Of a stretch of DNA of 39,452 nucleotides, positions 1-34,362 are shown one piece after another. Position 1 is the first letter of the stretch. Each line of letters begins with the position of its first letter. This DNA comes from Candidatus Magasanikiibacteriota bacterium. GTDB lineage: Bacteria > Patescibacteriota > Patescibacteriia > Magasanikbacterales > GWA2-37-8. The translations under genes and the position numbers were made by a program. Below the pieces are notes generated by a model. That model had not been told where the DNA came from. It made no database searches and saw only the letters and a list, made by a program, of their open reading frames with translations. The stretch covers positions 1 to 39,452 of the forward strand of contig JAVHOZ010000058.1 in the NCBI GenBank assembly GCA_036170335.1, written 5' to 3'.

Positions 1-470
1 AAATAAATTAAAATTATTATTTGCATTCTTGTCATGTATACCATTGGTAAAATTTATTCCTTCTTGTTTGCCATCAACATAAAATTTTCCTTTTCTAGGA
101 TCACTATTATCAACTGTCACCGCTACAAAATGCCAATCGAAATCATTGTTATTAAAAATAGACCTCGTATTTGACTGTGAAAGAGCCCACCCAGAACCAA
201 ACAACAAATCATTTGCTGTTAAAGATGCTGTAGAAAGAAACTTTAAATTAACTATTTTTCCAGCGTCTTTTTTAATAAAGAAACTAAAATCCCTTTTGCC
301 TGTTGTGCCAGCATTGGTATCGTCTGCTTTGGTTATTATCGGATAAATTCCATCTACTGCTGTAGATTCAATCTTGATCCAAGTGGCAAATGTTATTTCA
401 TTTAAATTAAAACTCTGATTACTGTCGATTGTAAAATAATTAGAAGTACCATTAAAATACATTGCTTGTT
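1..470 (-). other. LamG / concanavalin-A-like lectin domain (Laminin_G_3-like), cut by the window edge
   Basis: Hand translation reads AMYFNGTSNYFTIDSNQSFNLNEITFATWIKIES...DWHFVAVTVDNSDPRKGKFYVDGKQ. This matches the LamG_3 pattern: F.G...Y..V......L......T..AW.K, then W.HVA.T.D, then LY.DG. Confidence 0.6.
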
Positions 471-3400
471 TTTTGCTGGCATCTGCTGATGTTGTGGTAG
501 CTGAACAGCCTGCACTTGCATTACCAGTACAATAAGCCTTCAAATCAGTAGAAGTAGCAAAATTTGGGATAGAAGATGTAGGATATTTTACCCACACATC
601 ATCAAATTTGTAGTAAACAATAGCCGATTGATTTTGCCATCGACATTGCTTGCAAATTCTCTGACCATTGGCACTGCCGATACTACATGTTTGGTTGCCA
701 TCACACTCTTCACCAAAATCAGATTGCACAAAACCATCTCCACAATAAGGTCCGGATTTTTGACAATCAAAAGAACAAGAATTATCAGCCGACAAACCAT
801 ATTTTTGCTTGTTAATAGCTAAGGTAATACATTTGCCTTGTTGACTTTGCCAAAGAGATGAATTTTTACAATCAACGTCTGTTAAACAAACTCTATTATC
901 ATTAACACCCCCCACACACCAACCATTATAATCTAGTGCTATATCACATACCTCATAAGTGGAGGAAACTATTTTGTTTCCACAAAATTCCTTCGCCAGG
1001 CCAGTGCAAGCACCATTGCAATGATTATATTTTCCATTGTTCAAAATTCCATCATCACACTTTTCTCCAATTTCAACTTTGCCGTTGCCACAATTGGCAA
1101 ATATACTACAAGTGGTAGTAACTGGGGTAGCTGACCATGTACAATCATTGGCACAAATAGTACCTTGTACCACAAAATTATTACAAGTAGATTGATTATT
1201 CCACACTACCGTACCTGGTGGATCACACTGCTCCCCTTTGTTCAAATTTATTTTTCCATCACCACATGTTCCCTGATTGATGGTAGTGATTTCATTTTTT
1301 TGATTACAAATACCATTTTGATCTATAAAATTAAAATGTTCTGGATTTTTTATCAAATCCTTAACCAGACTATCAAAATTAGTAATTACCAGCCCTGAAT
1401 CTTCCAAACGCAATTTTACCAAATAATCAGAAGCACTTTCGCCAGTGGAAGTGGCAATATAACGATAAGCCAAAGAATCATTGGCACAGGCAAAACTATA
1501 ACGCTTATCATCCGTACTCCAGCCGGTATTGGGATCGTGTAACACACAGGTTTCGGGTGGCACTAATTTTGAACAATCAGCATCACTGACACAAAATTTA
1601 CCAGTAGAAGACACGCAAGTGCCAGCAATACCAAGTTTGTTTATTGGATCAGCTGGAATAATACCACCAGTCGCATTTCCGAGTTTTGACCACGAAGGCC
1701 AAGTACTCACAGTCTGTCCAGACAAATAGGTACCTTCCTTGAGGTCGGGATAAGTACTTTGGTGGTTATTGTAATAACTAAACAGACTGTTATCGATACT
1801 ACCCATATCTTGAAGACGCGAGAAATTCCTCATTAATTTATCTTTTTGCGCTGAACATACTTCACCATTGCTACAATCAAAATCCGAAACACACTGATCG
1901 GTATCCCCTGGATTATTCATGTCTTTGCCACAATAACCATAGTTAGTTAGATTGATATTGAATTTCAAATTTTTTAATAAACTATCAAACACTTTCTTGG
2001 TTTCTGGATCGGCATTATCGCTAATGCTGAATAAATAAATATTGGTAAATAAATTACCATTTGGAATATTGTCAAAATTAAAAGCGCCAACATAAATATT
2101 ACTACCAACAGCTATCGCTTTATTACCATCAATCGGTGGCAAATCTTGAAAACCTTTTTCTGCAAATACATCATCCAGCCAATCACTTGGGGTTAGATGT
2201 TTTGGATTGGCGAGTACCTGGATACCAATCGCATCATTATTTTTATCGTTGGTAAATAAGAAGCGTTTAAAAGCTTTGCTATCTTGAAAAACATTACTAA
2301 TATTGCCAACACATTTTTGTTTAGTTTTAGATACATTTAGATCAGCTTCACCTCCATAACATACCACATTATTATGATTGCTTAACCAATTCATATAATC
2401 GGGCGAACCGGAACTAGGACAAGTCCATGCAGGGCAATATGCTGGTTGATTTTTACTATCTAAATAATATACAATTCCGTTTGGATCAGAATAACCACAT
2501 TTCATTGTATAATCATTAACATTATAAAATACCTTACCATTGCCAGCTGAAAATTGATTAACGTCTTTACAATCAGCGTCAATATCACAAGCATCATTAG
2601 TCAAATCACACACCCCAACACTTTTGACCTGCGCTTCACTTATTTGAACCGCTGGACGCAAATATGGCAGATCGTCTATCACACCAGTGTCACCATTGTC
2701 GGCACAATAATAAGTGCTAAAATTATAATATCCTTTGCCAACATTCGCAGGCGGTATGGCGGTATTGTTAAAGACATTGTCAGTCAAATTAAAACCATCA
2801 TTATTACCTATCTTATCCTCATAAGGAAAAATAATAGCCGGCTCAATTTGCCCAAGAACGAGCACTTCTTTTGGTGGCCAAGGATTCTCACACAAAAATA
2901 CGATGATGTGTGATTTACCAGTGCCGACTATACCCGTTTGATTGGTATATAAATTTTCAGTAATTACCGCTGACGCATGGACATCCACTTCCCCATTGTT
3001 ATTTTGTGGAATAACTACATTAATGAACAAAGAAGTGCTCGATATCAAAACATATGGGCTACTTTTTGGACCCCATTGATACTCCCAACCATAACCCTTC
3101 ACTGGTTGAATCATCTGACCAGAAGCAGCCACACCTTTGGCCACCAAAAAAACATTCTCATCAAGTTTAGAAAAATAATGTTGATCAGGGTCGATCATCA
3201 CTTTCTCGATTTCACAAATTTTGTCTCCCGTCTTAAATTTCCAATTAATTGCTTTGCCATCTGGCTTGCTTTCAATGCTTACACCCTGAACATTTTTAAT
3301 TCCTTTTTTCAAAATTACCACATAATCGGTTGACACAGCCAATGGATTTACCAAACCAAACAAAACTTTCGATCCACCTTTGTTATCTGGTACCACCTGC

Positions 3401-6400
3401 ACCTGACCAAGATCAGCTCCAGCGCACCAAGCATTTGCACTCACTTCATGACCAAACAAATTTTTTATCGCGATAATTATTTTGTTCCAAATATTTTTAT
3501 ACCATGGTAAAGAAGAATCAAATGGATCTAAAAATGAAATAGTACTACTCACATCTTCCAAACCACCGGTACAAGCGGAGGCGGCACTGCGAGCAATAAT
3601 AAAATTACCCGGTAGTGTAGCAGGATCAATCACACTATCAAAATCTGCTTCAATATAGGTATTGATACAAACATTTGTGGTATATTTGGCCGGGATAGTA
3701 CTAGTGTTACCAGGATAAACACCAGTTAATTTTGTTTTAAAATAACAACAAGAATTACCACCAACTCCAATATCTTTGTTTCCGGAATAAGCATTCTGAC
3801 ACTCTTCGTCGGTTTTATAGCCACACAATACTTTATATATACCAACTCCACTAATACCGGCCGCTGTACCTGTGATATCACTTACTTGCGCTGGGATGGT
3901 TGTACTAACTACGTTTTTAACTGAACCAGCCTGTCCGATAGCCAAAACCCAAGGGTCAACCAAAAGTCCACCAAGCGAATCTTTGTGCCAGAGATTGGTT
4001 AAATATTTATCAGTTTCACAATCAGCATCTTCGCCAATACCAGCTTTCCCATCACCACAAACTGATGGATCAGAATATAACAAAGAAGAACCAATATGTT
4101 GTAAGTTATCATTACAACCTTCTGCATCAACAGCACATTTTACACCATTGGTAACATCTGGTTTTGTTTTATCTATTTTCAAACAACGATCATTACACTC
4201 AGAAGCAACTTTGCCATCAGGCAAATCACAACCTACATCTTCATCTGGGCTTTGTACTCCATCACCACACTGACTATAAGCTTGACTACAGAAAAAATTA
4301 TAATCTTTTTGGTCAAAACCTCCATAAGCCGGATTGGCAGGGAGATTATTGTCAAAACACCATTTGGAAGATAATCTTGTACCAAAATGTAAACACTGCT
4401 CTGAACAATACATTGACGAAGTAGATACATTTTGATCAGCCGATACCCCTAAGTCACAATCTTCTCCCATTCCAATCATACTATTACCACAAATCGAAGC
4501 GCTAACTTCTTTGGCGGCAGTTTGCATTTTTGATCCAGTGTGCAAACATATATTACTACAACCAACACCGCTTTTTAGATCCTTAGGATCACACGCCTCA
4601 CCTTTTTTATTATCTACTGTGCCATCGCCGCAAGTGTTTTTATCCAAATTGCCCAAAAATTTACAGCTCAAACCACAACCGGTGGTTTTACTAGGACCGT
4701 CACAATCCTCACCCGCTTCTATTTTTCCATTGCCACAAATTGGATAGGCTGCAATTTTTGCCCCAGCTGGCACCGTACTGCCTTTTAAAATACAGTTAGC
4801 GGTACAATATGCACCCGATCCTTTGGTTATAAACGGTTTTACTTTGGCTATAAATTTATCATCAGAAGAAGTCCAATTCCAATTTTGAGTCCAAGGATTC
4901 AATTTTTGTCCAGTTTTACTACAAGCATCCGGAGCCGCATATGGCTGAGATTGAAACACTGCTAAATCTTTTAATTTTGAGGCAATAAATATCTTTGGCA
5001 CAACATCAATATGATCTACTTTACAAGCTTCCTTTTTGGTTCTAAATCTCCAAGTGAATACTTTGTTATATGGTTTGGAAAAAGTATCAAAATCTGTTGA
5101 GTTGGCCGCTGACCATAGCTGATCAATACTGTTTTTAGCAGGGGGTGTACTAGAGGCTGATAAAGTTACTTGATACAACTTATTTGGTAGCAGACCAGCA
5201 TCTGAACCATAGTTAGCAATCTGTAAAATTGTATTACCGGACACCTTATCATCAAATTTAATATTTGGTAGTTTGATAGGTTGACTAGTACTCAAACAAT
5301 TTTCATCATTACACTGTACCAACTTTATAGCTGGAGAATCTGGTCCAATATTATGATTAGACATCGTGACATTAAACTTGGCGCCGATAGCCGCATTGGT
5401 ACAAGCTTCCAAACAATTTGGCCAATAATCTACTACGTCCGGATTGGACAGATCAACTGTCAATGGACTACTGCCTGTTTTACTCACTTTAGGAACAGTA
5501 GATGTAGAAGCAGTGGCTTTTACATCTACACTTTCATTTGGCACTCCTATCCCGACAGTATTACCCAAAGTATTTACTTGAGTACTGATTTTATTATCTA
5601 CACCGTTGATAGTTACATATGGTTTTAAAGGATTTGGAGGATTTTTATTATCCACAATCCATTTCCAATCAAAACCAGATACATCCATCATTATACAATA
5701 TTGATCACTTAGACCGTTGCCTTTATAATAAACATCAAAAACATCTCCACCAACCGAATGATAACGCATTGGAGACTCTAATAATTTTGCCCAAAATTCA
5801 TAAGGAGTAACTACTACCTGTTTCAAAGCACAATCGCCTTTTCCAGTTTTAAAAGAAAAACAATAAGCAGTATCCGCGCCACATGGATTCGTGGCCATTA
5901 ATTTTAATATTTGCCCTTTATTGGCTGGAGCGGCAATACTGTCTGTCAAAACCACTTGATAAGTTGTACTAGCAGACCATTTTCCCGCATCAGATTTGAT
6001 AGACAAAGATTGTTGTAAATTCTGAGCCTGATTGAGACTAACGGGATTTAATTTAAAACTATCGTTAGTCAAAGTGATTTTTTGTGGTTTTTGACATACA
6101 CCTTTGATATCTATGCTATCACAAGAATTAACCAGCACAGTTTTGTTATTCACAGTCACAGGATTCAATTCAGAACTAAATTCAATAGTCACTAAAGCTG
6201 TTTGACAAACTTTGTCAGCATCATTTTTGCCAAGTATATTCCATTTGGTAGATGGAGACGGTGTCGGAATTTTTATTCCAGACTCAGTTTGCGCGTCACA
6301 ACGCTCTACAACTTGTGGTGGTGGAATAATGTCTTTGGTAGAAAACATCCAGACAAAACCACTATTTTTAAATTCTCCAATACACAAATTTTCTTTTGGT

Positions 6401-9081
6401 TTGCAAGCTCCCAATTCTGCTCCAGTGGTACAACATTTCAAACTAGCATCGGTACAGGTATTATTATTCTTTGTACAATCAGACGCTGAAAATAACATAC
6501 CGTTACTTTGTTTTTTATCCGTTGAACGATAGGCATAAGCCAAACCGGAAATAATATCTTTGCTGTTTGGAGTAGTGGTAACTGTTTTATCATCGATAAT
6601 AGAAACATTAGCACTAATTAATGTGTTAGTAATATCATCGGACTTTCCACCAAGTTTCCAAAAATAAAAACTGGTTACTTTATCTAAATACTCACCGGAG
6701 ACAGTTACAAATTTACCAACTGCAAATGGCACCGGACCAGACACTGGTGAAATTCCACAAATCCCCGGACTAGGATCACCGACATTTACCGTGACTGATT
6801 TGTCGTTGTCTAAAACACTATTTAGTTCATTGACTACATTATACACTTGAATAGTATATTTTTTGTTTGTATTGGCCAATCCAACTGGAACTTTTACTAC
6901 GATTTGATTGTCTTTCCAAAATGAATCTTTGCAGGCAACTGGAAAAACCAAATCACCAATTACATTCTCAGCATTTAAAATACCGATCGGTTTGAACCAC
7001 ACCACCCCCTGTTTTTCACCAAAATTTTTACCGGTGATAGTGAGATAATCACCAATAGTAGTTGTGGCTGGAGAGGAAATACTCGTTATAAACGGGGCAT
7101 CAGGATTTGATCCAGAAACTTGAAACAAAACTGTGTTGCTAAACTGACCATTGTTAGTTACCTTCACTCCGTAATCACCATTACCCAAAGTAACCGGCAC
7201 TACCGACGAAATCAGAGTATCGGCCCATCCCACTGCTCCACCAACGATTTTTGCTTTGGTATTATCACCAAAAATTACAGAACTCTTAACTATATCATAA
7301 GCACCAAAATTTTTACCTTTTACCGAAAATTTTGTACCAACTGATCCTTGATTTGGAGCCAAACCACAAATACCCGGATGAGAAATGTTGGATAAAACAA
7401 AATTTGGCACTTTTTTAAAACCATCACCGGTAGTATCAAAATATTTAACATTAAAATTGTCCAGACCAACCGCTTTTGTATTAAATACTGCTATTTTACT
7501 ACCATCAATCACACCATCTGGAACCAAGACAATAATCTGATTATCACTCCAATTATTAAAACCTGGGCCGCAATCTGCCACTTGTGCCTCTACCCAATCG
7601 GCTAGTACTTTTATATCAGGATTTTTAACCTTAGCAAAATAAACATGACCTTTGTTGGTACCAAAATTCTTGCCAACAACAGAAACAAAATCTCCAATTG
7701 CGGCGCTGGCTGGAGAAAAATCAGAAATATAAGTTTTGTCCACACAAATACCTTCTAGATCGTTAATATCTTTCTTTTGACAAAAACCACTAGCACAATC
7801 GGCATCTTTGGCACATTTGTCACCAGAACATATACCACATTCTCCACCACAATCAACAAACTTTTCACCTAGATTTTGATCTAAAACTTTATTAAAACAG
7901 TGTTCCGGTTTCAGGTTGGCGACAGAATTGTCCTCACCACTGTTGGCTGCAAAGTCCAACCCTATAGCTTTTAAAGAGTGGTCACCAATATTTAATTTAT
8001 TAGTTGGCCAAATAATTGTCGCCGTGCCGGATTTTTGACATTCAGTAAAATTTTTGTAAGTATCAACTAAAATATCATCGGCGTTCAAAATTAGATTTTG
8101 CAAACCACCATCATCAGTAAAATTGATTTTTACACTAATATCACTTCCTTGTTTCAAATCTACATCAGATATTTTTGGATATAAAATACTAATGGTAGGA
8201 TTCTTTCTATCTACCCCTTCACCGGTAATAAAAGTAACATCTGAACATTTACCAGTACTAAATAAACAATTTAAATCTTTACCATCAACACTTTTAATCC
8301 CCCCACTATTTTTTATTTTTATTTTATAGGTAGTAGTCGCGTCAAAACAATCTTTGCCAACATCTGGTGCCGGACAAGCTCCATTGGTAGGTTTGAAATA
8401 GGCAACTTTGTGCAAATTTGTCTGCCACGACCAATCACCTACTACCGGCACAGAAGTTAAAGCATTTTCTACTATAATATTATCTTTTAGAGTACTTACA
8501 TCCACATCCATATTGAACACTATCACTGGTGCCACATTTCGGATACAAACATTACCAGCAACTGGCGGTTGAATAATCTTAAATTTACCATCACAACTAC
8601 CATATGGACATGGTGGCACGACACAAGCTGGGCAATCTCCACCACAACTAGCTCCACCGGCATCTTTTTGAATCTTACACAGGGCATCACTGCTAACCGT
8701 TGTCGCCTCCACCAATTTATTCATTACAAAACTCACAATCGCATAAGATGACAAAACAATGACCAAACCAATCGTCGCATTAATTAATATTTTTTTAGCT
8801 GAGCCGACTTTTTCGTCATCACCACCAGCAGTCATCCAAAGGTAACCGGCATATAGCATCAAACCCAAAGCTACTATCCCTAGTAATTCCAAAGCTGCTC
8901 TGATAATTTTGGCAACGATAGTACGAATATCACCACTAGGCAAACCAGTTGCGGCCACTTCCTTCAGACCAACATCTAGAGATGTTTGAGCCTGAACCAA
9001 ATTATTAAATAACAAAAATCCAGTTACAAAAAATAACGAAAAAATTAAGAACAAAAATAATTTTTTATTTATAAATTTCAT
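1..9081 (-). CDS. giant secreted, membrane-anchored surface protein, 3'-partial (at least 3027 codons; C-terminus lies beyond window position 1)
   Basis: ATG at 9081-9079 overlaps the TGA of the upstream ORF (ATGA). Plus-strand triplets phased from position 1 contain no TTA/CTA/TCA in any block I hand-checked (1-660, 4981-5040, 7621-7740, 8701-9081). No stop-delimited minus-strand ORF in this frame appears in the track, as expected for an ORF that never reaches a stop inside the window. Hand translation starts MKFINKKLFLFLIFSLFFVTGFLLFNNLVQAQTSLDVGLKEVAATGLPSGDIRTIVAKIIRAALELLGIVALGLMLYAGYLWMTAGGDDEK and reaches DWHFVAVTVDNSDPRKGKFYVDGKQEGINFTNG at the window edge. Confidence 0.9.
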   Translation of the reverse strand, partial: MKFINKKLFLFLIFSLFFVTGFLLFNNLVQAQTSLDVGLKEVAATGLPSGDIRTIVAKIIRAALELLGIVALGLMLYAGYLWMTAGGDDEKVGSAKKILINATIGLVIVLSSYAIVSFVMNKLVEATTVSSDALCKIQKDAGGASCGGDCPACVVPPCPYGSCDGKFKIIQPPVAGNVCIRNVAPVIVFNMDVDVSTLKDNIIVENALTSVPVVGDWSWQTNLHKVAYFKPTNGACPAPDVGKDCFDATTTYKIKIKNSGGIKSVDGKDLNCLFSTGKCSDVTFITGEGVDRKNPTISILYPKISDVDLKQGSDISVKINFTDDGGLQNLILNADDILVDTYKNFTECQKSGTATIIWPTNKLNIGDHSLKAIGLDFAANSGEDNSVANLKPEHCFNKVLDQNLGEKFVDCGGECGICSGDKCAKDADCASGFCQKKDINDLEGICVDKTYISDFSPASAAIGDFVSVVGKNFGTNKGHVYFAKVKNPDIKVLADWVEAQVADCGPGFNNWSDNQIIVLVPDGVIDGSKIAVFNTKAVGLDNFNVKYFDTTGDGFKKVPNFVLSNISHPGICGLAPNQGSVGTKFSVKGKNFGAYDIVKSSVIFGDNTKAKIVGGAVGWADTLISSVVPVTLGNGDYGVKVTNNGQFSNTVLFQVSGSNPDAPFITSISSPATTTIGDYLTITGKNFGEKQGVVWFKPIGILNAENVIGDLVFPVACKDSFWKDNQIVVKVPVGLANTNKKYTIQVYNVVNELNSVLDNDKSVTVNVGDPSPGICGISPVSGPVPFAVGKFVTVSGEYLDKVTSFYFWKLGGKSDDITNTLISANVSIIDDKTVTTTPNSKDIISGLAYAYRSTDKKQSNGMLFSASDCTKNNNTCTDASLKCCTTGAELGACKPKENLCIGEFKNSGFVWMFSTKDIIPPPQVVERCDAQTESGIKIPTPSPSTKWNILGKNDADKVCQTALVTIEFSSELNPVTVNNKTVLVNSCDSIDIKGVCQKPQKITLTNDSFKLNPVSLNQAQNLQQSLSIKSDAGKWSASTTYQVVLTDSIAAPANKGQILKLMATNPCGADTAYCFSFKTGKGDCALKQVVVTPYEFWAKLLESPMRYHSVGGDVFDVYYKGNGLSDQYCIMMDVSGFDWKWIVDNKNPPNPLKPYVTINGVDNKISTQVNTLGNTVGIGVPNESVDVKATASTSTVPKVSKTGSSPLTVDLSNPDVVDYWPNCLEACTNAAIGAKFNVTMSNHNIGPDSPAIKLVQCNDENCLSTSQPIKLPNIKFDDKVSGNTILQIANYGSDAGLLPNKLYQVTLSASSTPPAKNSIDQLWSAANSTDFDTFSKPYNKVFTWRFRTKKEACKVDHIDVVPKIFIASKLKDLAVFQSQPYAAPDACSKTGQKLNPWTQNWNWTSSDDKFIAKVKPFITKGSGAYCTANCILKGSTVPAGAKIAAYPICGNGKIEAGEDCDGPSKTTGCGLSCKFLGNLDKNTCGDGTVDNKKGEACDPKDLKSGVGCSNICLHTGSKMQTAAKEVSASICGNSMIGMGEDCDLGVSADQNVSTSSMYCSEQCLHFGTRLSSKWCFDNNLPANPAYGGFDQKDYNFFCSQAYSQCGDGVQSPDEDVGCDLPDGKVASECNDRCLKIDKTKPDVTNGVKCAVDAEGCNDNLQHIGSSLLYSDPSVCGDGKAGIGEDADCETDKYLTNLWHKDSLGGLLVDPWVLAIGQAGSVKNVVSTTIPAQVSDITGTAAGISGVGIYKVLCGYKTDEECQNAYSGNKDIGVGGNSCCYFKTKLTGVYPGNTSTIPAKYTTNVCINTYIEADFDSVIDPATLPGNFIIARSAASACTGGLEDVSSTISFLDPFDSSLPWYKNIWNKIIIAIKNLFGHEVSANAWCAGADLGQVQVVPDNKGGSKVLFGLVNPLAVSTDYVVILKKGIKNVQGVSIESKPDGKAINWKFKTGDKICEIEKVMIDPDQHYFSKLDENVFLVAKGVAASGQMIQPVKGYGWEYQWGPKSSPYVLISSTSLFINVVIPQNNNGEVDVHASAVITENLYTNQTGIVGTGKSHIIVFLCENPWPPKEVLVLGQIEPAIIFPYEDKIGNNDGFNLTDNVFNNTAIPPANVGKGYYNFSTYYCADNGDTGVIDDLPYLRPAVQISEAQVKSVGVCDLTNDACDIDADCKDVNQFSAGNGKVFYNVNDYTMKCGYSDPNGIVYYLDSKNQPAYCPAWTCPSSGSPDYMNWLSNHNNVVCYGGEADLNVSKTKQKCVGNISNVFQDSKAFKRFLFTNDKNNDAIGIQVLANPKHLTPSDWLDDVFAEKGFQDLPPIDGNKAIAVGSNIYVGAFNFDNIPNGNLFTNIYLFSISDNADPETKKVFDSLLKNLKFNINLTNYGYCGKDMNNPGDTDQCVSDFDCSNGEVCSAQKDKLMRNFSRLQDMGSIDNSLFSYYNNHQSTYPDLKEGTYLSGQTVSTWPSWSKLGNATGGIIPADPINKLGIAGTCVSSTGKFCVSDADCSKLVPPETCVLHDPNTGWSTDDKRYSFACANDSLAYRYIATSTGESASDYLVKLRLEDSGLVITNFDSLVKDLIKNPEHFNFIDQNGICNQKNEITTINQGTCGDGKINLNKGEQCDPPGTVVWNNQSTCNNFVVQGTICANDCTWSATPVTTTCSIFANCGNGKVEIGEKCDDGILNNGKYNHCNGACTGLAKEFCGNKIVSSTYEVCDIALDYNGWCVGGVNDNRVCLTDVDCKNSSLWQSQQGKCITLAINKQKYGLSADNSCSFDCQKSGPYCGDGFVQSDFGEECDGNQTCSIGSANGQRICKQCRWQNQSAIVYYKFDDVWVKYPTSSIPNFATSTDLKAYCTGNASAGCSATTTSADASKKQAMYFNGTSNYFTIDSNQSFNLNEITFATWIKIESTAVDGIYPIITKADDTNAGTTGKRDFSFFIKKDAGKIVNLKFLSTASLTANDLLFGSGWALSQSNTRSIFNNNDFDWHFVAVTVDNSDPRKGKFYVDGKQEGINFTNGIHDKNANNNFNLF
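700..1275 (-). repeat. second cluster of three CG[DN]G...GE.CD cysteine-rich repeats
   Basis: Translated motifs are TCGDGKINLNKGEQCDPPG, NCGNGKVEIGEKCDDG and YCGDGFVQSDFGEECDGN. Confidence 0.6.
4018..4740 (-). repeat. cluster of five Cys-rich CG[DN]G...GE.CD repeats (DUF4215 / Myxococcus cysteine-rich-repeat-like)
   Basis: Translated motifs are ICGNGKIEAGEDCDGP, TCGDGTVDNKKGEACDP, ICGNSMIGMGEDCDLG, QCGDGVQSPDEDVGCDL and VCGDGKAGIGEDADCE. Confidence 0.6.
6540..7750 (-). repeat. four tandem IPT/TIG-like Ig-fold repeats inside the giant protein
   Basis: Hand translation gives four modules: YISDFSPASAAIGDFVSVVGKNFGTNKGHVYF, ICGLAPNQGSVGTKFSVKGKNFG, ITSISSPATTTIGDYLTITGKNFGEKQGVVWF and ICGISPVSGPVPFAVGKFVTVSGEYL. 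They follow the I.SISP..G..G..VTI.G.NFG...V.F pattern of IPT/TIG domains. Confidence 0.55.
8710..9081 (-). other. N-terminal module of the giant protein: signal peptide (VQA/QT) plus VirB2/TrbC-like (T4SS-pilin-like) two-helix membrane hairpin
   Basis: Two hydrophobic helices (LELLGIVALGLMLYAGYLW and ILINATIGLVIVLSSYAIVSFV) flank a short charged loop (MTAGGDDEKVGSAKK). From memory, this is the pattern of TrbC/VirB2 and Pfam T4SS_pilin proteins. It is near-identical in layout to the N-terminus of the neighbouring 693-aa ORF. Confidence 0.6.
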
Positions 9082-11159
9082 GGTAACGGATTATTTGCTT
9101 TAATATCAACAAAACAATTTTCTATTCCATCTTTGGCAGTAGTAACCTTTCCATTGCAACAAAATTCACTGCCTATCTTATTTTCAACACCACAACAATT
9201 CATTTTTAATAAAGGATCAGACAAATCACAAACTTTTGAATCTAATTTTTCTTTTGATACCAAATCCTTTGGCCCCACACCCGGATAAAAACAGTTAAAA
9301 TGCGCATCCTCCACACTGGAACTAACTATCGGAATATACATTTGTTTTTTATCATCCAAAAATGGACCATGGAGGATGTCGAAAGTCTGATAATCCATAT
9401 GTACAAAAGGAACTTTCCATAACGAATCACCAACAGGAACTGGATATTCTTCTATACTTATAAAATAAGCAGACTCACCTCGCATACGTTTACTAAAATA
9501 CAAACTTAGTTTGGCGTCTTTTGGCACATTTTGACCATTTACTCCCGGAGTGATAGTCATTATATATGGAGAAACAGCATCGATTGCATCTTTTATTTGA
9601 AAATTCCAAAAATAATTATCCGGCTCTTTCCATTTGTCAAAAACCGGCAAAGTGGTAGTAGCGGTTTGAGCTTTTCCATCCGGTTGACCATCTAGCTTCA
9701 CACTGTTTCCATCCAAGGCATTTCCAGACATATCGGCTATTCCACTAAACGGGATACTTTCAAAAGTGTTTGGCAAAGTTTTGGCAGCTTCTAATAACAT
9801 CTGATAATTATCAAACAAATGTTTTTCAGCATCAGCTTGGCAGTTGGCACCCGGTTTGTCACAGACAGGCAAACAATAAATCGGATAACCACAAGCATTT
9901 TTGCCACACTCTTTGCTCGGAGTAAATTCTAATGTCTGATAATTATTTATTAAGCTAAAACTTCCAATCGGTACAGTACTGCTTGGAGCATCAGAAAATA
10001 TTTTATTTCCAGTTAAAGCATAATAAGTTTTGGCTCCAAAAGCGGTAGCACCAAAAACACCTTGCACACCGGAAGGATCCATCGGCTCGCTAAAAGAAAT
10101 TTGGATTACTGAATTTTTGTATTCAACCTTATCCTTGCCTGGGAACACATCAACCACATGTGGAGGTGCGGTATCCAATAATGTACTACAAGTAAACTGC
10201 CAAATGTATAAAGGAGGGTTTTGATTTTGAAAAATTGAAGGATTGTTGTTGGTAACATCATCAGCTAAAATACCACTTCCCAAATGCACAATATAAGATA
10301 CTAAATCACTGGTATTTCCCAAATAACCACCTTCACCGTCGGTGATTGGTTTTAATACAATCGTATAAACTCCGGTAATATTATTTACTGTACTAGTAGC
10401 AGCAGTAATAATCAACGCTTTGATAGATTGACCATTGTCCGCTTGAGAAACATTGATAAATTTATCTGATAATTTACCAAGTGTTGAGGTGACATGATCA
10501 CAATTATTAAACCAATTAAAATTGGCCTTATCGGTATTTATGCAATCGCCAAAGGTGCCATTACCGTTGAAATCATCGACAAAGCTGGACAATAAAATAG
10601 GTTTGGCAAAAGTAATGACGATCTTGGTATTGCGTGGTACATCTTTCTGGTTGCGAGCGGGATAATGATCTTTGATGACCTTTCCCAACGCACCACTACC
10701 AGAAAAATTTTGCGCACCCGGGGCATAGACAGCAGAATTGGTACCACCGCCATCTCCCACTCCCAATATTTTCATAATATATGAAACAATACTAAAAGCA
10801 CTCAAAATAATCGCCAAACCAATGGTCGCATTGCGGAGAATATTTTTGGCTTGAGTGATCTGTTCGTCATTGCCACCGGCTGTCATCCAAAGATAACCGG
10901 CATATAACATCAAACAAACCACAACAATCCCAAGCAAACCAAGCGCACCGCGAATAATGCGAGCAATAATCAAACGAATATCAATAGAGGCCAAACCTAA
11001 CGGTTGTTCAACAACTTTTAAACCCTGCAACACTTGACCGTTTGGATCAGCTACGCTTTGAGCAGAAGCGGTCTGAAAAACAAAAAAAACCGCTACTAAG
11101 ATAAGCCCTAGTATAGTAGCGGTTTTTAAAAATCTATTTTTTGATAACCATTGAAGCAT
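9078..11159 (-). CDS. secreted pilin-module-anchored surface protein with SbsA/Big_5-like Ig domains and a Cys-rich C-terminus; paralog of the giant protein N-terminus
   Basis: 693-aa ORF with signal peptide (ASA/QS). It then reads IDIRLIIARIIRGALGLLGIVVVCLMLYAGYLWMTAGGNDEQITQAKNILRNATIGLAIILSAFSIVSYIM, which aligns residue-for-residue with the giant ORF N-terminus. PHVVDVFPGKDKVEYKNSVIQISFSEPMDPSGV and ITPGVNGQNVPKDAKLSLYFSKRM look like Big_5 starts. The TGA overlaps the downstream ATG. Confidence 0.8.
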   Translation of the reverse strand: MLQWLSKNRFLKTATILGLILVAVFFVFQTASAQSVADPNGQVLQGLKVVEQPLGLASIDIRLIIARIIRGALGLLGIVVVCLMLYAGYLWMTAGGNDEQITQAKNILRNATIGLAIILSAFSIVSYIMKILGVGDGGGTNSAVYAPGAQNFSGSGALGKVIKDHYPARNQKDVPRNTKIVITFAKPILLSSFVDDFNGNGTFGDCINTDKANFNWFNNCDHVTSTLGKLSDKFINVSQADNGQSIKALIITAATSTVNNITGVYTIVLKPITDGEGGYLGNTSDLVSYIVHLGSGILADDVTNNNPSIFQNQNPPLYIWQFTCSTLLDTAPPHVVDVFPGKDKVEYKNSVIQISFSEPMDPSGVQGVFGATAFGAKTYYALTGNKIFSDAPSSTVPIGSFSLINNYQTLEFTPSKECGKNACGYPIYCLPVCDKPGANCQADAEKHLFDNYQMLLEAAKTLPNTFESIPFSGIADMSGNALDGNSVKLDGQPDGKAQTATTTLPVFDKWKEPDNYFWNFQIKDAIDAVSPYIMTITPGVNGQNVPKDAKLSLYFSKRMRGESAYFISIEEYPVPVGDSLWKVPFVHMDYQTFDILHGPFLDDKKQMYIPIVSSSVEDAHFNCFYPGVGPKDLVSKEKLDSKVCDLSDPLLKMNCCGVENKIGSEFCCNGKVTTAKDGIENCFVDIKANNPLP
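10761..11159 (-). other. signal peptide plus VirB2/TrbC-like pilin module of the 693-aa protein
   Basis: Same two-helix hairpin with a GG(N/D)DE loop as at 8710..9081. Confidence 0.6.
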
Positions 11160-13529: not shown

Positions 13530-13551
13530 AATTTATTTTTTGTTAGCTGTT

Positions 13552-13580
13552 ATAATACTATATTTTTTTACTTTTGGCAA
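13552..13580 (-). promoter_or_regulatory. sigma70-like promoter for lepB-hisS (TTGCCA-17-TATTAT)
   Basis: Minus-strand TTGCCA at 13580-13575 and TATTAT at 13557-13552, with a 17-nt spacer. It sits just downstream of the tRNA terminator. Confidence 0.45.
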
Positions 13581-13584
13581 ATTT

Positions 13585-13611
13585 AAAAATCCCGAAATAA
13601 ACGGGATTTTG
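13585..13611 (-). terminator. rho-independent terminator after tRNA-Tyr
   Basis: AAAATCCCG(13586-13594)/CGGGATTTT(13602-13610) hairpin, followed on the minus strand by a U-run. Confidence 0.6.
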
Positions 13612-13877
13612 TGGGCAGAGAAGGATTCGAACCTTCGAAGGCGGAGCCAACAGATTTCACTTATCCATAAGTTTCCTTACAGCATGGACTATATCTTTAC
13701 CCGCGAAGGGTACTCTGGTATCTAGTCTCTACGGCGCTCCCCGAACATTTCGGAGTTCCCACGGTATTAGCATCTCCCAGAGCCTTCACCGTTATCCCAG
13801 AGAGTTCATCCTGGAGTTTCCCCCAAGAGCTGCAATTGTTCACAGTCTGTCCCATTTAACCACTTTGGTATCTGCCC
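13612..13877 (-). tRNA. tRNA-Tyr(GUA), type II (long variable arm), interrupted by a 184-nt group I intron; CCA not encoded
   Basis: The joined exons give GGGCAGA TA CCA AAGTGGTTAAA TGG G ACAGA CTGTAAA TCTGT TGGCTCCGCCTTC GAAGG TTCGAAT CCTTC TCTGCCC A (82 nt). This has the same segment lengths as E. coli tRNA-Tyr (from memory), and shares AGACTGTAAATCTG and CTTCGAAGGTTCGAATCCTTC with it. Discriminator is A73. Confidence 0.9.
13658..13841 (-). ncRNA. group I intron (IC3-like, ORF-less) in the tRNA-Tyr anticodon loop between U35 and A36
   Basis: The 5' exon ends in U, and exon CUGU pairs with intron GCAG (P1, U-G wobble at the splice site). The intron ends in G. Core elements are GTAGAGACTAGA (J6/7-P7, identical to the Azoarcus intron as I recall it), a TACCC-TTCGC-GGGTA hairpin (P8), GGGTAAAGATATAGTCC (compare Anabaena GGGUAAAGAGAGAGUCC), and P7 GACTA/TAGTC complementarity. 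Confidence 0.85.
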
Positions 13878-13882
13878 AATTG

Positions 13883-14206
13883 TTATATTTTTAAAAAACT
13901 TTTTGCTAAATTAATATTTTTTTCTTGTTTATTTTTCGACGCTGTTAGTCGTAAATTAATACAGCTTTTATTGATATGTTTAACCGGTATATAATAAATA
14001 TTTTTTGAAATAATATCTACTGCCGCCAAAATTTCAAAATCTTTCTTTGAATAATTTATTACATCCCAATTATTAGACGACCGACAATTAATGATCATCA
14101 CACCATTCTTGGGTACAACGGTTTTAACTTGCACCCTTTTCATCTTACCGTTTTTTTCGATTATCAAATCATATTGAGTGTTTTCGCTAATCGGAAACGA
14201 AACCAT
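13883..14206 (-). CDS. PD-(D/E)xK homing-endonuclease-like protein (I-Ssp6803I / PDDEXK_5-like). The ATG-initiated part is given here; the family N-terminus continues upstream to 14275 across an in-frame TGA
   Basis: 107-aa ORF reading VSFPISENTQYDLIIEKNGKMKRVQVKT...DFEILAAVDIISKNIYYIPV. This fits the recalled family pattern (YDLI..(n)..R/KVQVKT, then ...YIIP). Upstream and in the same frame is MHTKIKGDIGELLVAADLLEKG-TGA-MVSFP (14275..14207), which matches the family N-terminal helix KGD..E..V...L...G. Confidence 0.65.
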   Translation of the reverse strand: MVSFPISENTQYDLIIEKNGKMKRVQVKTVVPKNGVMIINCRSSNNWDVINYSKKDFEILAAVDIISKNIYYIPVKHINKSCINLRLTASKNKQEKNINLAKSFLKI

Positions 14207-14290
14207 TCATCCTTTTTCTAAAAGATCTGCGGCTACTAACAATTCCCCTATGTCCCCCTTAATTTTAGTATGCATAACTTGTAAAAAAAG

Positions 14291-14363
14291 AGCCGGGAAC
14301 AGGACTCGAACCTGCGACCCGCACTTTACAAAAGTGCTGCTCTACCAACTGAGCTAACCCGGC
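14291..14363 (-). tRNA. tRNA-Thr(UGU)
   Basis: GCCGGGT TA GCTC AGTTGGTA GAGC A GCACT TTTGTAA AGTGC GGGTC GCAGG TTCGAGT CCTGT TCCCGGC T. 73-nt cloverleaf with one U-U mismatch at 7:66. Confidence 0.9.
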
Positions 14364-14380
14364 ATATATAATATACCCAG

Positions 14381-14453
14381 AGCCGTTATCGGGAATCGAA
14401 CCCGAGACCTTTTCCTTACCATGGAAATGCTCTACCAACTGAGCTACAACGGC
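14381..14453 (-). tRNA. tRNA-Thr(GGU)
   Basis: GCCGTTG TA GCTC AGTTGGTA GAGC A TTTCC ATGGTAA GGAAA AGGTC TCGGG TTCGATT CCCGA TAACGGC T. 73-nt cloverleaf. Confidence 0.9.
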
Positions 14454-14458
14454 GTTAT

Positions 14459-15358
14459 TTATATTTTATCAATACGACCCTTGAAATCAGCTAGCTTTGA
14501 ATTTTCCGGATTTACTAAACGTAAATTTTGGTAAGCTTGGGTGGCCAATTTATTATCTTGACATAGTATAGCAGTTTCTATCAGTAAGTCAAGATACTTT
14601 GGATTTTGTGGTTCGAGTTCTACCGCCTGTAAAATAGCCTCTTTGGCTACCAACGGTTGACTTACTTTCAAAAGCAATTCCGCTAGATGAGCAAAGCGTG
14701 GCGACAGTGAATCGTTGGCCACCACTGCACGTTGATAGTACTCTATTGCTTCATCGATATTATTTTGCGCCTCAGCCATTTCCGCCAACCGCACCATAAC
14801 CGCGTCATTTTCCGGTTCCAACTGCAACAAAAACATAAAAGTCTGTTTGGCCTCTTCGGTAGAATTTTTCTTAATGTACACTTCAGCTAAACCACGATAA
14901 GCCGACGCCGCTTTTACATTCATTTTAATAGCAGAGATAAAAGCGTGTTCAGCTTGATCTAAATTGTCCAATTGTAAGTTTTGTTCACCTTCTTGTATTA
15001 AACTATTTAGCTTGTTTTCTTTTTCTTCTACCGTCAACAAACTTTGTTCAGCTTTAGTTTTAACCATTTCTTCGTGATGAATCAAACGTTCAATCTTGCC
15101 AACATATATCCTAAACTTCAACTGGAACCGGCGCCATATTTTGTCTATAGGGCGCAATTTTGCACCAAGTTTGGCGCGTGTTTCCTTAGTGTGAGTTTCA
15201 ATTCTTTTGGTAATAATCTCATATTTTTTGCGTGAAGTTTTTTCCTGTGGCAAACTATCCACATCCAAATTGGATAGCTGTGGGGTTTTTTTCCAAATAA
15301 CAAAAACAATTACCCCAAGACAAACCAGCACTACTAATAAAAACAGGATATTAAACAT
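14459..15358 (-). CDS. membrane-anchored tetratricopeptide (TPR) repeat protein
   Basis: N-terminal TM helix (FNILFLLVVLVCLGVIVFVIW), then TPR-like helical repeats (AEHAFISAIKMNVKAASAYRGLAEVYIK..., IDEAIEYYQRAVVAND...). Start trimmed to ATG 15358 to avoid overlap with tpiA. Confidence 0.7.
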   Translation of the reverse strand: MFNILFLLVVLVCLGVIVFVIWKKTPQLSNLDVDSLPQEKTSRKKYEIITKRIETHTKETRAKLGAKLRPIDKIWRRFQLKFRIYVGKIERLIHHEEMVKTKAEQSLLTVEEKENKLNSLIQEGEQNLQLDNLDQAEHAFISAIKMNVKAASAYRGLAEVYIKKNSTEEAKQTFMFLLQLEPENDAVMVRLAEMAEAQNNIDEAIEYYQRAVVANDSLSPRFAHLAELLLKVSQPLVAKEAILQAVELEPQNPKYLDLLIETAILCQDNKLATQAYQNLRLVNPENSKLADFKGRIDKI

Positions 15359-34181: not shown

Positions 34182-34246
34182 AATCTTTTAACAAAAAAAT
34201 CTGTGTTTCCACAGACAAATTATACAGTACAAATCGACTCTTACCT

Positions 34247-34271
34247 TGTCATTCCCGCGAAAGTGGGAATC
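34247..34271. repeat. single unit of the GTCATTCCCGCGAAAGCGGGAATC repeat family in the rplJ 5' leader
   Basis: TGTCATTCCCGCGAAAGTGGGAATCT. The stem ATTCCCGC/GTGGGAAT closes a GAAA loop. Confidence 0.7.
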
Positions 34272-34333
34272 TAAGCATTTTGTACCTCGGCAGGTAATTA
34301 AGGCTTGCGCCTCCTGCTATCTATGGTGCGGAT

Positions 34334-34362
34334 ATGATAATGGATTAGGAAAGTTTTGTCAA
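34334..34362 (-). promoter_or_regulatory. sigma70-like promoter of the rplJ-rplL operon (TTGACA-17-TATCAT), followed by a leader of about 150 nt
   Basis: Minus-strand TTGACA at 34362-57 and TATCAT at 34339-34, with a 17-nt spacer. The leader (34182-34330) is structured and could be an L10-leader autoregulatory element, but I did not verify this. Confidence 0.5.

Follow-up and report, generated by a model that had tools for sequence, protein, structure and literature searches.

How does a homing-endonuclease gene come to stand between two tRNA genes of a bacterial chromosome, beside a group I intron that has no open reading frame (ORF) of its own, and why is its frame interrupted by a stop codon? 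The questions are raised by a 39,452-nt stretch of contig JAVHOZ010000058.1 (assembly GCA_036170335.1) from Candidatus Magasanikiibacteriota bacterium, a member of the candidate phyla radiation (CPR). We refer to this whole stretch as the window; the features discussed lie on its minus strand, and the locus was compared with related loci labelled L001 and so forth. The endonuclease gene comprises 130 codons (window 13883-14275) if its in-frame TGA is read as tryptophan (Trp). The answer that we consider most probable, and hold with moderate confidence, is that it belongs to a mobile free-standing homing-endonuclease cassette, the copy in this contig having been freshly inactivated by the TGA.

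With Trp at the TGA, the 130-codon translation matches profile PF11645 (PDDEXK_5) over positions 1-135 of 138 with 100.3 bits (E=1.2e-28; curated cut-off 26.1 bits), and the sequence of the I-Ssp6803I structure (PDB 2OST) with E=6e-7. This bears out the I-Ssp6803I-type PD-(D/E)XK assignment of an earlier note, made from the letters of this DNA, which had suggested the profile search. The gene consists of a 22-codon ORF (14207..14275) in frame with a 107-codon one (13883..14206), the only separator being the TGA at codon 23 (14207..14209), directly followed by ATG. Codons 1-22 (MHTKIKGDIGELLVAADLLEKG, 14210..14275) hold the core N-terminal helix as well as K4, K6 and G7, which do not vary when the gene is aligned with 35 database homologs; codons 24-130 and the TAA stop hold the motif residues D36, Q49 and K51 and are publicly annotated as P0002, a protein of 107 amino acids (aa). 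The 107-aa ORF alone also exceeds the threshold (69.9 bits). Because the 22 upstream codons add about 30 bits and on their own match profile positions 1-22 (E=0.022), they are part of the family's N-terminus, as the note had proposed in placing the N-terminal helix upstream of the TGA in the same frame; it had named the lack of a profile match, or upstream codons foreign to the family's N-terminus, as fatal to its proposal, and we found the reverse in both respects. Over the 36 aligned sequences D36 and Q49 are invariant and K51 nearly so, and the stretch YD36...VQ49VK51 aligns with YDL...VQVKS of 2OST, a Trp of which falls on the TGA position. For P0001, a 91%-identical protein, the AlphaFold model (pLDDT 85.7) has 2OST as its top Foldseek match (TM 0.73-0.75, E=1.4e-9); in the model, residues 9-20 are predicted to form the N-terminal helix and W23 to stand at the start of the first strand. 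The first helix of PD-(D/E)XK enzymes is generally a component of the core fold. NCBIfam holds no model specific for the nuclease. By its sequence, this is a member of the I-Ssp6803I / PF11645 family of PD-(D/E)XK homing endonucleases, with a free-standing gene in the spacer of a tRNA operon.

The order of genes in this operon is tRNA-Thr(GGU), tRNA-Thr(UGU), endonuclease, intron-bearing tRNA-Tyr and a hairpin, so that the nuclease gene does lie outside an ORF-less intron, as the note had described. The tRNA-Tyr(GUA) gene (13611-13877) begins 5 nt after the endonuclease stop with a 36-nt 5' exon (13842..13877) that ends at anticodon U35; the 184-nt intron (13658..13841) is inserted between anticodon positions 35 and 36 (U35/A36), 41 nt from the end of the endonuclease ORF, and is followed by a 47-nt 3' exon (13611..13657) with a long variable arm and discriminator A73. 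The intron was detected by the Rfam group I model RF00028 in a scan of the local region (50.3 bits, E=4.6e-12) and missed in a scan of the whole window at the gathering threshold. A six-way alignment that included intron-less relatives places its boundaries at GACTGT/...G/AAATCTG (slashes mark the exon ends); the P1 pairing CUGU/GCAG is conserved, and the splice was placed after U35. Compensatory changes in 19 of the 52 predicted pairs, found among 9 related introns, indicate that the intron is a functional RNA. ARAGORN labels the split tRNA as tRNA-Ser(UGA), the splice point being ambiguous by 2 nt; this label is ruled out by CTGTAAA in the intron-less alleles (anticodon GUA), by the P1 pairing and by the discriminator A. 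Standard tRNA finders miss the tRNA-Tyr of these genomes. Neither a group I intron in a bacterial tRNA-Tyr nor a free-standing endonuclease in a tRNA operon of CPR is described in the literature that we searched; one paper (PMC8172020) briefly remarks that group I introns occur in tRNAs of some of its circularised genomes, a set that includes CPR.

Evidence for mobility comes from close relatives. Syntenic genomes were located through the adjacent TPR protein, which gave 8 Magasanikbacteria genomes including the window. Four of them (L079, L081, L083 and L091; TPR 80-88% identical) have an empty site, in which tRNA-Thr(GGU), tRNA-Thr(UGU), a spacer of 14-29 nt, an intron-less tRNA-Tyr and L33 follow one another with neither ORF nor intron. 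In the window and L001 the spacer is filled by the PD-(D/E)XK gene, tRNA-Tyr bears the intron, and tRNA-Thr(UGU) is of a distinct allele; in L084 and L086 the tRNA-Tyr intron is the same, but the spacer holds an unrelated ORF of 202 aa. Intron and upstream ORF thus occur together in 4/4 genomes and are both absent from the other 4. This distribution conflicts with the phylogeny of the flanking genes: over the 2.96-kb M16-TIM-TPR block the window is nearest to the empty-site locus L079 (87.4% nt identity) and furthest from L001 (77.9%), the very locus with which it shares the nuclease (86.3% nt), the intron-bearing tRNA-Tyr gene (96%) and tRNA-Thr(UGU) (100%). We therefore infer horizontal movement of the cassette. 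The window's tRNA-Thr(UGU) (14290..14363; anticodon stem-loop GCACU UUUGUAA AGUGC, C30:G40) is an endonuclease-linked allele, and that of the endonuclease-less relatives is very different (ACGGU...ACCGU, G30:C40), whereas tRNA-Thr(GGU) (14380..14453) is a resident allele with 2 positions different from L079, the nearest endonuclease-less relative, and 10/74 from L001. The linked tRNA-Thr(UGU) shows a non-standard acceptor-stem pair, flagged in the Rfam alignment, and has no encoded CCA; the relatives' resident allele encodes CCA.

Further loci bear on how the cassette moves. L003 and L006 are 82% identical in TIM and only 68% in the nuclease, which shows at least one replacement of the nuclease. 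In L008 (1002-1070) the nuclease ORF is separated from the resident tRNA-Thr(UGU) by a stretch with 31 nt copied from the 3' end of a foreign tRNA-Thr (GGTCCTCGGTCCGAATCCGAGAGGTGGCTCC), which looks like a recombination footprint; in the same locus the 5' end of the downstream tRNA-Tyr (CCAGGGGTGGC) is present twice. Taken together, the incongruence, the clean empty sites and the L008 remnant form the pattern expected of horizontal spread by homologous recombination (homing). Indeed, the locus is polymorphic for presence and absence at a fixed intergenic site, incongruently with its flanks, as in intronless homing, and the linked flanking alleles are those expected from co-conversion (the tRNA-Thr(UGU) shared by the window and L001, the 30:40 pair and the L008 remnant). 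In the mechanism that we envisage, the endonuclease gene would probably be co-transcribed with the tRNAs and its mRNA released by tRNA processing; the endonuclease would make a site-specific double-strand break in the tRNA-gene sequence of cassette-less alleles, and recombinational repair would copy the cassette in, by intronless or trans homing, with the intron carried along.

The strongest alternative makes the intron a partner rather than a passenger. In strict collaborative homing the endonuclease would cut intron-less tRNA-Tyr at the intron insertion site, the intron would shield its carrier, and both would spread together, a pathway that is established in phages (PMC3984707) and to which the earlier note had likened this locus. 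Among the 8 Magasanikbacteria the analogy has support, since the intron occurs only where an ORF stands just upstream (the nuclease in the window and L001, the 202-aa ORF in L084 and L086) and is absent from the 4 empty sites. The ORF-less intron clearly moves: over the 267 positions of the intron-bearing tRNA-Tyr gene, L001 and L084 show only about 3 differences (~99% identity), vs 78% identity of their flanks. Moreover, the tRNA-Tyr of L079, L081 and L083 would be valid targets, because their anticodon stem-loop is the same as that of the window's joined exons, and the founder of the family cuts a tRNA anticodon region (PMC3384342).

In the wider clade, however, the analogy is weakened. A scan of species-representative genomes yielded 76 loci (77 with the window), on all of which ARAGORN was run with introns allowed. 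The relatives with 44-90% identity, 25 in number, come from Omnitrophota, Saganbacteria and a number of CPR phyla; in 24 of them the distance from tRNA-Thr(UGU) to the ORF start is 6-69 nt, whatever stands downstream. An intron-bearing tRNA-Tyr follows the ORF in the window, L001, L007 and L019; an intron-less tRNA-Tyr follows it directly in 9 loci (L005, L010-L012, L014-L016, L018 and L021), tRNA-Thr(GGU) in L003, L004 and L006, and nothing nearby in several others. The intron-less tRNA-Tyr of L003, L005 and L006 even share their stem-loop with the intron-bearing one of L007, and the strictest partner of the intron is not the nuclease: it is the 202-aa ORF (6/6 loci). The PF11645 family as a whole is tied to tRNA genes, with 8 of the 77 loci having the ORF inside a predicted split tRNA (mostly Arg-UCU) and 58 having it free-standing within 120 nt of a tRNA gene; in this clade the fixed partner is tRNA-Thr(UGU), not the intron. 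Collaboration in the strict sense we regard as doubtful for this locus. About 70 phage records contain relatives at ~33% identity. The ORF-containing tRNA-Arg and tRNA-Lys introns were not detected by Rfam and are known from the split-tRNA prediction alone. One of these (L063:2309-2867) is on a contig labelled Bathyarchaeia, i.e. archaeal, where a PF11645-like ORF fragment lies in a 480-nt insert of a predicted split tRNA-Lys(CUU) in which Rfam reports no group I intron; since group I introns were not known from archaea according to a review of 2014, either the contig is mis-binned or the intron is of another kind. In addition, tRNA-Thr(GGU) is split after U36 by inserts of ~180-205 nt in L006:2898-3152, L018:3678-3956, L022:1858-2108, L087:3413-3673 and L089:2994-3246. 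These inserts (core ...ATACAGTCTAA...) resemble a second group I intron lineage, as far as a split-tRNA prediction alone can tell; those of L006, L018, L022 and L087 gave no RF00028 report (E<=0.001 or E<=0.01).

This leaves two candidate targets. The first is the anticodon stem-loop of tRNA-Thr(UGU). Nuclease-linked alleles have C30:G40 in 20 of 24 loci (NNNCU-UUUGUAA-AGNNN), as opposed to G30:C40 in 9 of 10 nuclease-free ones (..GGU-UUUGUAA-ACC..), and within Magasanikbacteria the contrast does not follow host phylogeny, because the window and its nearest relative L079 differ. The 4 exceptions among the linked alleles include L024, one of the few with a G30:C40 stem, whose nuclease is itself broken by a TAG. 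Cassette-less alleles have the palindrome GGTTTTGTAAACC here, while linked alleles almost always have the compensatory ..CTTTTGTAAAG.. instead. A palindromic stem-loop target with immunity through a compensatory swap would parallel I-Ssp6803I, the target of which is a 23-bp pseudo-palindrome (PMC3384342); the title of Bonocora & Shub 2001, as cited in PMC3984707, likewise names specificity for the tRNA-fMet anticodon region. The second candidate is the intron-insertion site of tRNA-Tyr, in which case the intron would give immunity.

Turning to the stop codon, we found Trp at position 23 in 32 of the 35 homologs, Tyr in 2 and Ile in 1, so that an aromatic residue is indeed expected here, as the earlier note had stated. 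The closest relative, P0001 of locus L001, stems from a Magasanikbacteria contig with the same gene order, is 130 aa long and carries the NCBI name "group I intron-associated PD-(D/E)XK endonuclease"; it reads GGG TGG ATG where the window reads GGA TGA ATG. A single TGG to TGA transition, which the note had also suggested, is therefore the likely origin of the stop. Apart from the TGA the gene is in good order, with no frameshift, no second lesion and all other invariant residues kept. It differs from the L001 gene at 54 of 393 nt, with a synonymous divergence (dS) of 0.84 and a nonsynonymous one (dN) of 0.045. The resulting dN/dS of 0.054 is on par with that of neighbouring housekeeping genes in the same comparison (aminoacyl-tRNA synthetase 0.047, M16 peptidase 0.055, TPR protein 0.046; TIM 0.10), so neither the relaxed selection nor the multiple lesions expected of a decaying pseudogene are seen. 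Given this dN/dS, the lack of a second lesion and the preserved residues, the stop must be either very recent or a consensus error, and since none of the 35 homologs carries TGA it is not a programmed feature. It is, in short, an ordinary and very recent inactivation, or an error. Of the three options offered by the note, decay after fixation is the best supported, with the restriction that a pseudogene, if it is one, would be a very young one.

That the TGA is unreal, having arisen in sequencing or assembly or as the consensus of a mixed population, and that the gene is intact and active, we consider unlikely, though less so than the explanations that follow. A sole lesion in a gene under such strong constraint is what an error would look like, and only a single assembly of the population was found: the collections searched held no second one, an exact look-up of the 107-aa product gave no further alleles, and a 27-nt degenerate DNA pattern across the TGA retrieved only the L001 contig from a metagenome collection. 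On the other hand, substitution errors are rare in an assembled consensus, and stops of this kind are not confined to the window. In L024 (208-591) codon 12, which encodes L or M in homologs, is an independent in-frame TAG, and at several distant loci the match covers no more than a portion of the query protein; inactivation is thus common in the family.

Several points weigh against a mobile and freshly inactivated cassette. The TGA could, as said, stem from an error in the consensus or from a minor variant. The target is deduced from co-distribution only, and phylogenetic non-independence inflates both the 4/4 vs 0/4 pattern and the C30:G40 association. Furthermore, the order TIM-TPR-tRNAs-nuclease is kept across 11 loci, down to 33% TIM identity, pairwise identities of nuclease and TIM are correlated over these loci (Mantel r=0.82, p=2e-4), and in 95% of the locus pairs TIM is the less conserved of the two, which is unusual for a purely selfish gene. 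Deep synteny together with such a correlation would also fit the long vertical inheritance of a useful host gene. One might accordingly think of a domesticated host nuclease of CPR tRNA operons, serving in defence or in maintenance of the tRNA locus, for which the TGA would be a loss of function in one lineage; its housekeeping-like dN/dS and the intactness of 24 of the 26 close nuclease copies would agree with this. It is at odds with the clean empty sites in 4 of the 8 closest syntenic genomes, with a nuclease distribution that contradicts the flank phylogeny, with the L003/L006 discrepancy and the foreign tRNA remnant in L008, and with the occurrence of relatives inside tRNA introns and in phages. 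The correlation with TIM would also arise if purifying selection is strong and transfers take place mainly between relatives; it keeps domestication alive as an explanation, one that we nevertheless judge quite improbable.

There remains the question of whether the host might read through the stop. The 29 long ORFs of the window are uninterrupted under translation table 11, with 125 TGG codons and no other in-frame TGA; TGA ends 3 ORFs, one of them as an ATGA overlap with the next ORF, and neighbouring proteins are equal in length to their orthologs. Reassignment of UGA (codes 4 or 25) is rejected on these grounds. Natural UGA leakiness, in which tRNA-Trp decodes the near-cognate codon, would restore the ancestral residue at a low level. 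That UGA is decoded or usefully bypassed, be it by a reassigned code, by programmed readthrough or by reinitiation at the adjacent AUG to give an active 107-aa protein, is very improbable despite this leakiness and despite a context that could permit termination-reinitiation (UGA directly followed by AUG, AAGGA just upstream; candidate site GGAUGAAUG), because TGA serves as a stop here and is kept in 0/35 homologs, and because a reinitiated product without the core helix 9-20, K4, K6 and G7 is unlikely, going by the model, to be active; with this, the recoding and reinitiation options of the earlier note lose their footing. As written, the gene would yield a 22-residue peptide and at most the truncated 107-aa product. 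In the reading that we prefer, that of a mobile cassette, the host takes the codon-23 TGA as a stop, and the copy would be freshly inactivated, or strongly down-tuned through UGA leakiness, at the start of the usual decay.

The 202-aa ORF that takes the place of the nuclease in some genomes deserves a closer description. It was located at L084:4138-4746, at 2501-3109 in each of L086, L087 and L088, at L089:2001-2594 and at L090:2001-2609. In all 6 loci examined it occupies the same spacer, starting 60-90 nt after tRNA-Thr(UGU) and ending 5-15 nt before a tRNA-Tyr that bears the group I intron, and in 5 of the 6 an extended -10-like motif of the TGGTATAAT type lies upstream. The family has about 200 matches, and all of those with a named source come from CPR or unclassified bacteria. 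The protein (AlphaFold pLDDT 92.8) has an N-terminal helix-turn-helix (HTH) and a conserved C-terminal domain for which we found no Pfam, PDB or fold match. A LAGLIDADG identity, suspected from the motif LYYGEGAK, found no support, as there was no Pfam match and no PDB sequence or fold match at E<=1e-3; a viral fold library gave weak matches only (E 0.005-0.03), and hhalign against I-CreI was not significant. The family is a candidate for a new free-standing homing endonuclease. Distant homologs (~30% identity) occur at two loci that also have a PD-(D/E)XK gene (L018:3157-3654 and L019:4160-4663); in L018 a tRNA-Thr(GGU) with an intron follows the homolog at a distance of 24 nt, and the PD-(D/E)XK gene adjoins an intron-less tRNA-Tyr. 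We tentatively suggest, as a possibility that we would not yet call likely, that the tRNA-Thr(UGU)/tRNA-Tyr spacer in CPR is a chromosomal landing pad on which two unrelated families, the PD-(D/E)XK nuclease and the 202-aa HTH protein, alternate. If this were true, the locus would represent the first collaborative-homing system in a cellular genome, a new family of homing endonucleases would be added together with a group I intron of bacterial tRNA-Tyr that has not been described before, and the window copy would show decay at its very first step.

Around the cassette, a promoter-like site (TTGACT-16-TG-TATACT, 14565..14592) lies within the 3'-terminal part of the TPR gene, ~110 nt before the tRNA cluster begins, and is a possible operon promoter; it is a consensus match only (10/12 positions, extended -10), and with 8 sites in the region vs 4.4 +/- 2.4 in shuffled sequences the promoter scan is statistically undistinctive. 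The 14-nt spacer TTTTTTTACAAGTT (14276..14289) between tRNA-Thr(UGU) and the endonuclease ATG contains no Shine-Dalgarno-like motif. Directly 3' of tRNA-Tyr, the hairpin AAAATCCCG-TTTATTT-CGGGATTTT (13586..13610) is a likely operon terminator, for which a strict terminator scan made no call. Synteny with the relatives (L33, DUF1189, PIF1 helicase) ends directly after tRNA-Tyr, in window 13530-13610, where lepB and hisS are found instead, and in L084 (5086-6555) a large serine recombinase gene follows tRNA-Tyr directly. Because of this break and the recombinase, the 3' side of the tRNA cluster looks like a hotspot of rearrangement or integration. Farther away, a giant ORF of more than 3030 codons runs off the contig start (window 1-9090, minus strand), and an ordinary ribosomal protein L10 leader (Rfam RF00557, 56.8 bits; 34185-34344, minus strand) precedes the rplJ region.

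Homing endonucleases of the I-Ssp6803I family have been described as encoded within introns and as mostly cyanobacterial (PMC3384342). In the present case this fold is found free-standing in a tRNA operon of ultra-small groundwater bacteria, beside an intron without an endonuclease of its own, an arrangement that has been proposed as an intermediate in the origin of mobile introns and has so far been documented in phages only. The TGA alone is ordinary; of more interest is its context, a patchy cassette at a fixed site of a tRNA operon, with an ORF-less intron that evidently moves and a second ORF family that alternates with the first. The set of near-identical loci (empty; intron and nuclease; intron and other ORF) makes it possible to test directly how the ORF-less intron spreads and at which tRNA gene the cut is made. 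For annotation the consequences are immediate: the tRNA-Tyr is overlooked by tRNA finders, and the nuclease is called as a truncated 107-aa protein.

Compared with known systems, the gene shares with I-Ssp6803I of the Synechocystis tRNA-fMet group I intron (PDB 2OST) the protein family, the predicted fold, the D...QxK motif and a length of ~130-150 aa, as well as the tie to a tRNA gene with a group I intron in the anticodon loop. It differs in that no intron encodes it, its place being the spacer that separates two tRNA genes; that the neighbouring intron is ORF-less and sits in tRNA-Tyr at anticodon positions 35/36; that the host is a CPR bacterium and not a cyanobacterium; and that the frame is interrupted by a premature TGA. 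The phage collaborative pairs, e.g. the cyanophage psbA intron with F-CphI or the intron in the DNA polymerase gene of T7-like phages (PMC3984707), are similar in that a free-standing endonuclease gene adjoins an ORF-less, structurally intact group I intron and that the two are co-distributed among close relatives. Those pairs concern protein-coding genes of phages, however, whereas the window presents a tRNA operon on a bacterial chromosome and an endonuclease of the PD-(D/E)XK type, and in many relatives the nuclease has no adjoining intron. Finally, SegB of phage T4 and other free-standing endonucleases of the Seg/Mob kind spread by intronless homing, and mobE, one of them, drives the trans homing of a neighbouring intron (PMC2988022, PMC2790892). 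With these the window shares the intergenic insertion between conserved genes, in the case of SegB even within the tRNA gene cluster of T4, the presence and absence among relatives, and a linkage of flanking alleles consistent with co-conversion; the T4 enzymes are of the GIY-YIG or HNH type and belong to a phage, while the present one is a predicted PD-(D/E)XK enzyme of a cellular genome.

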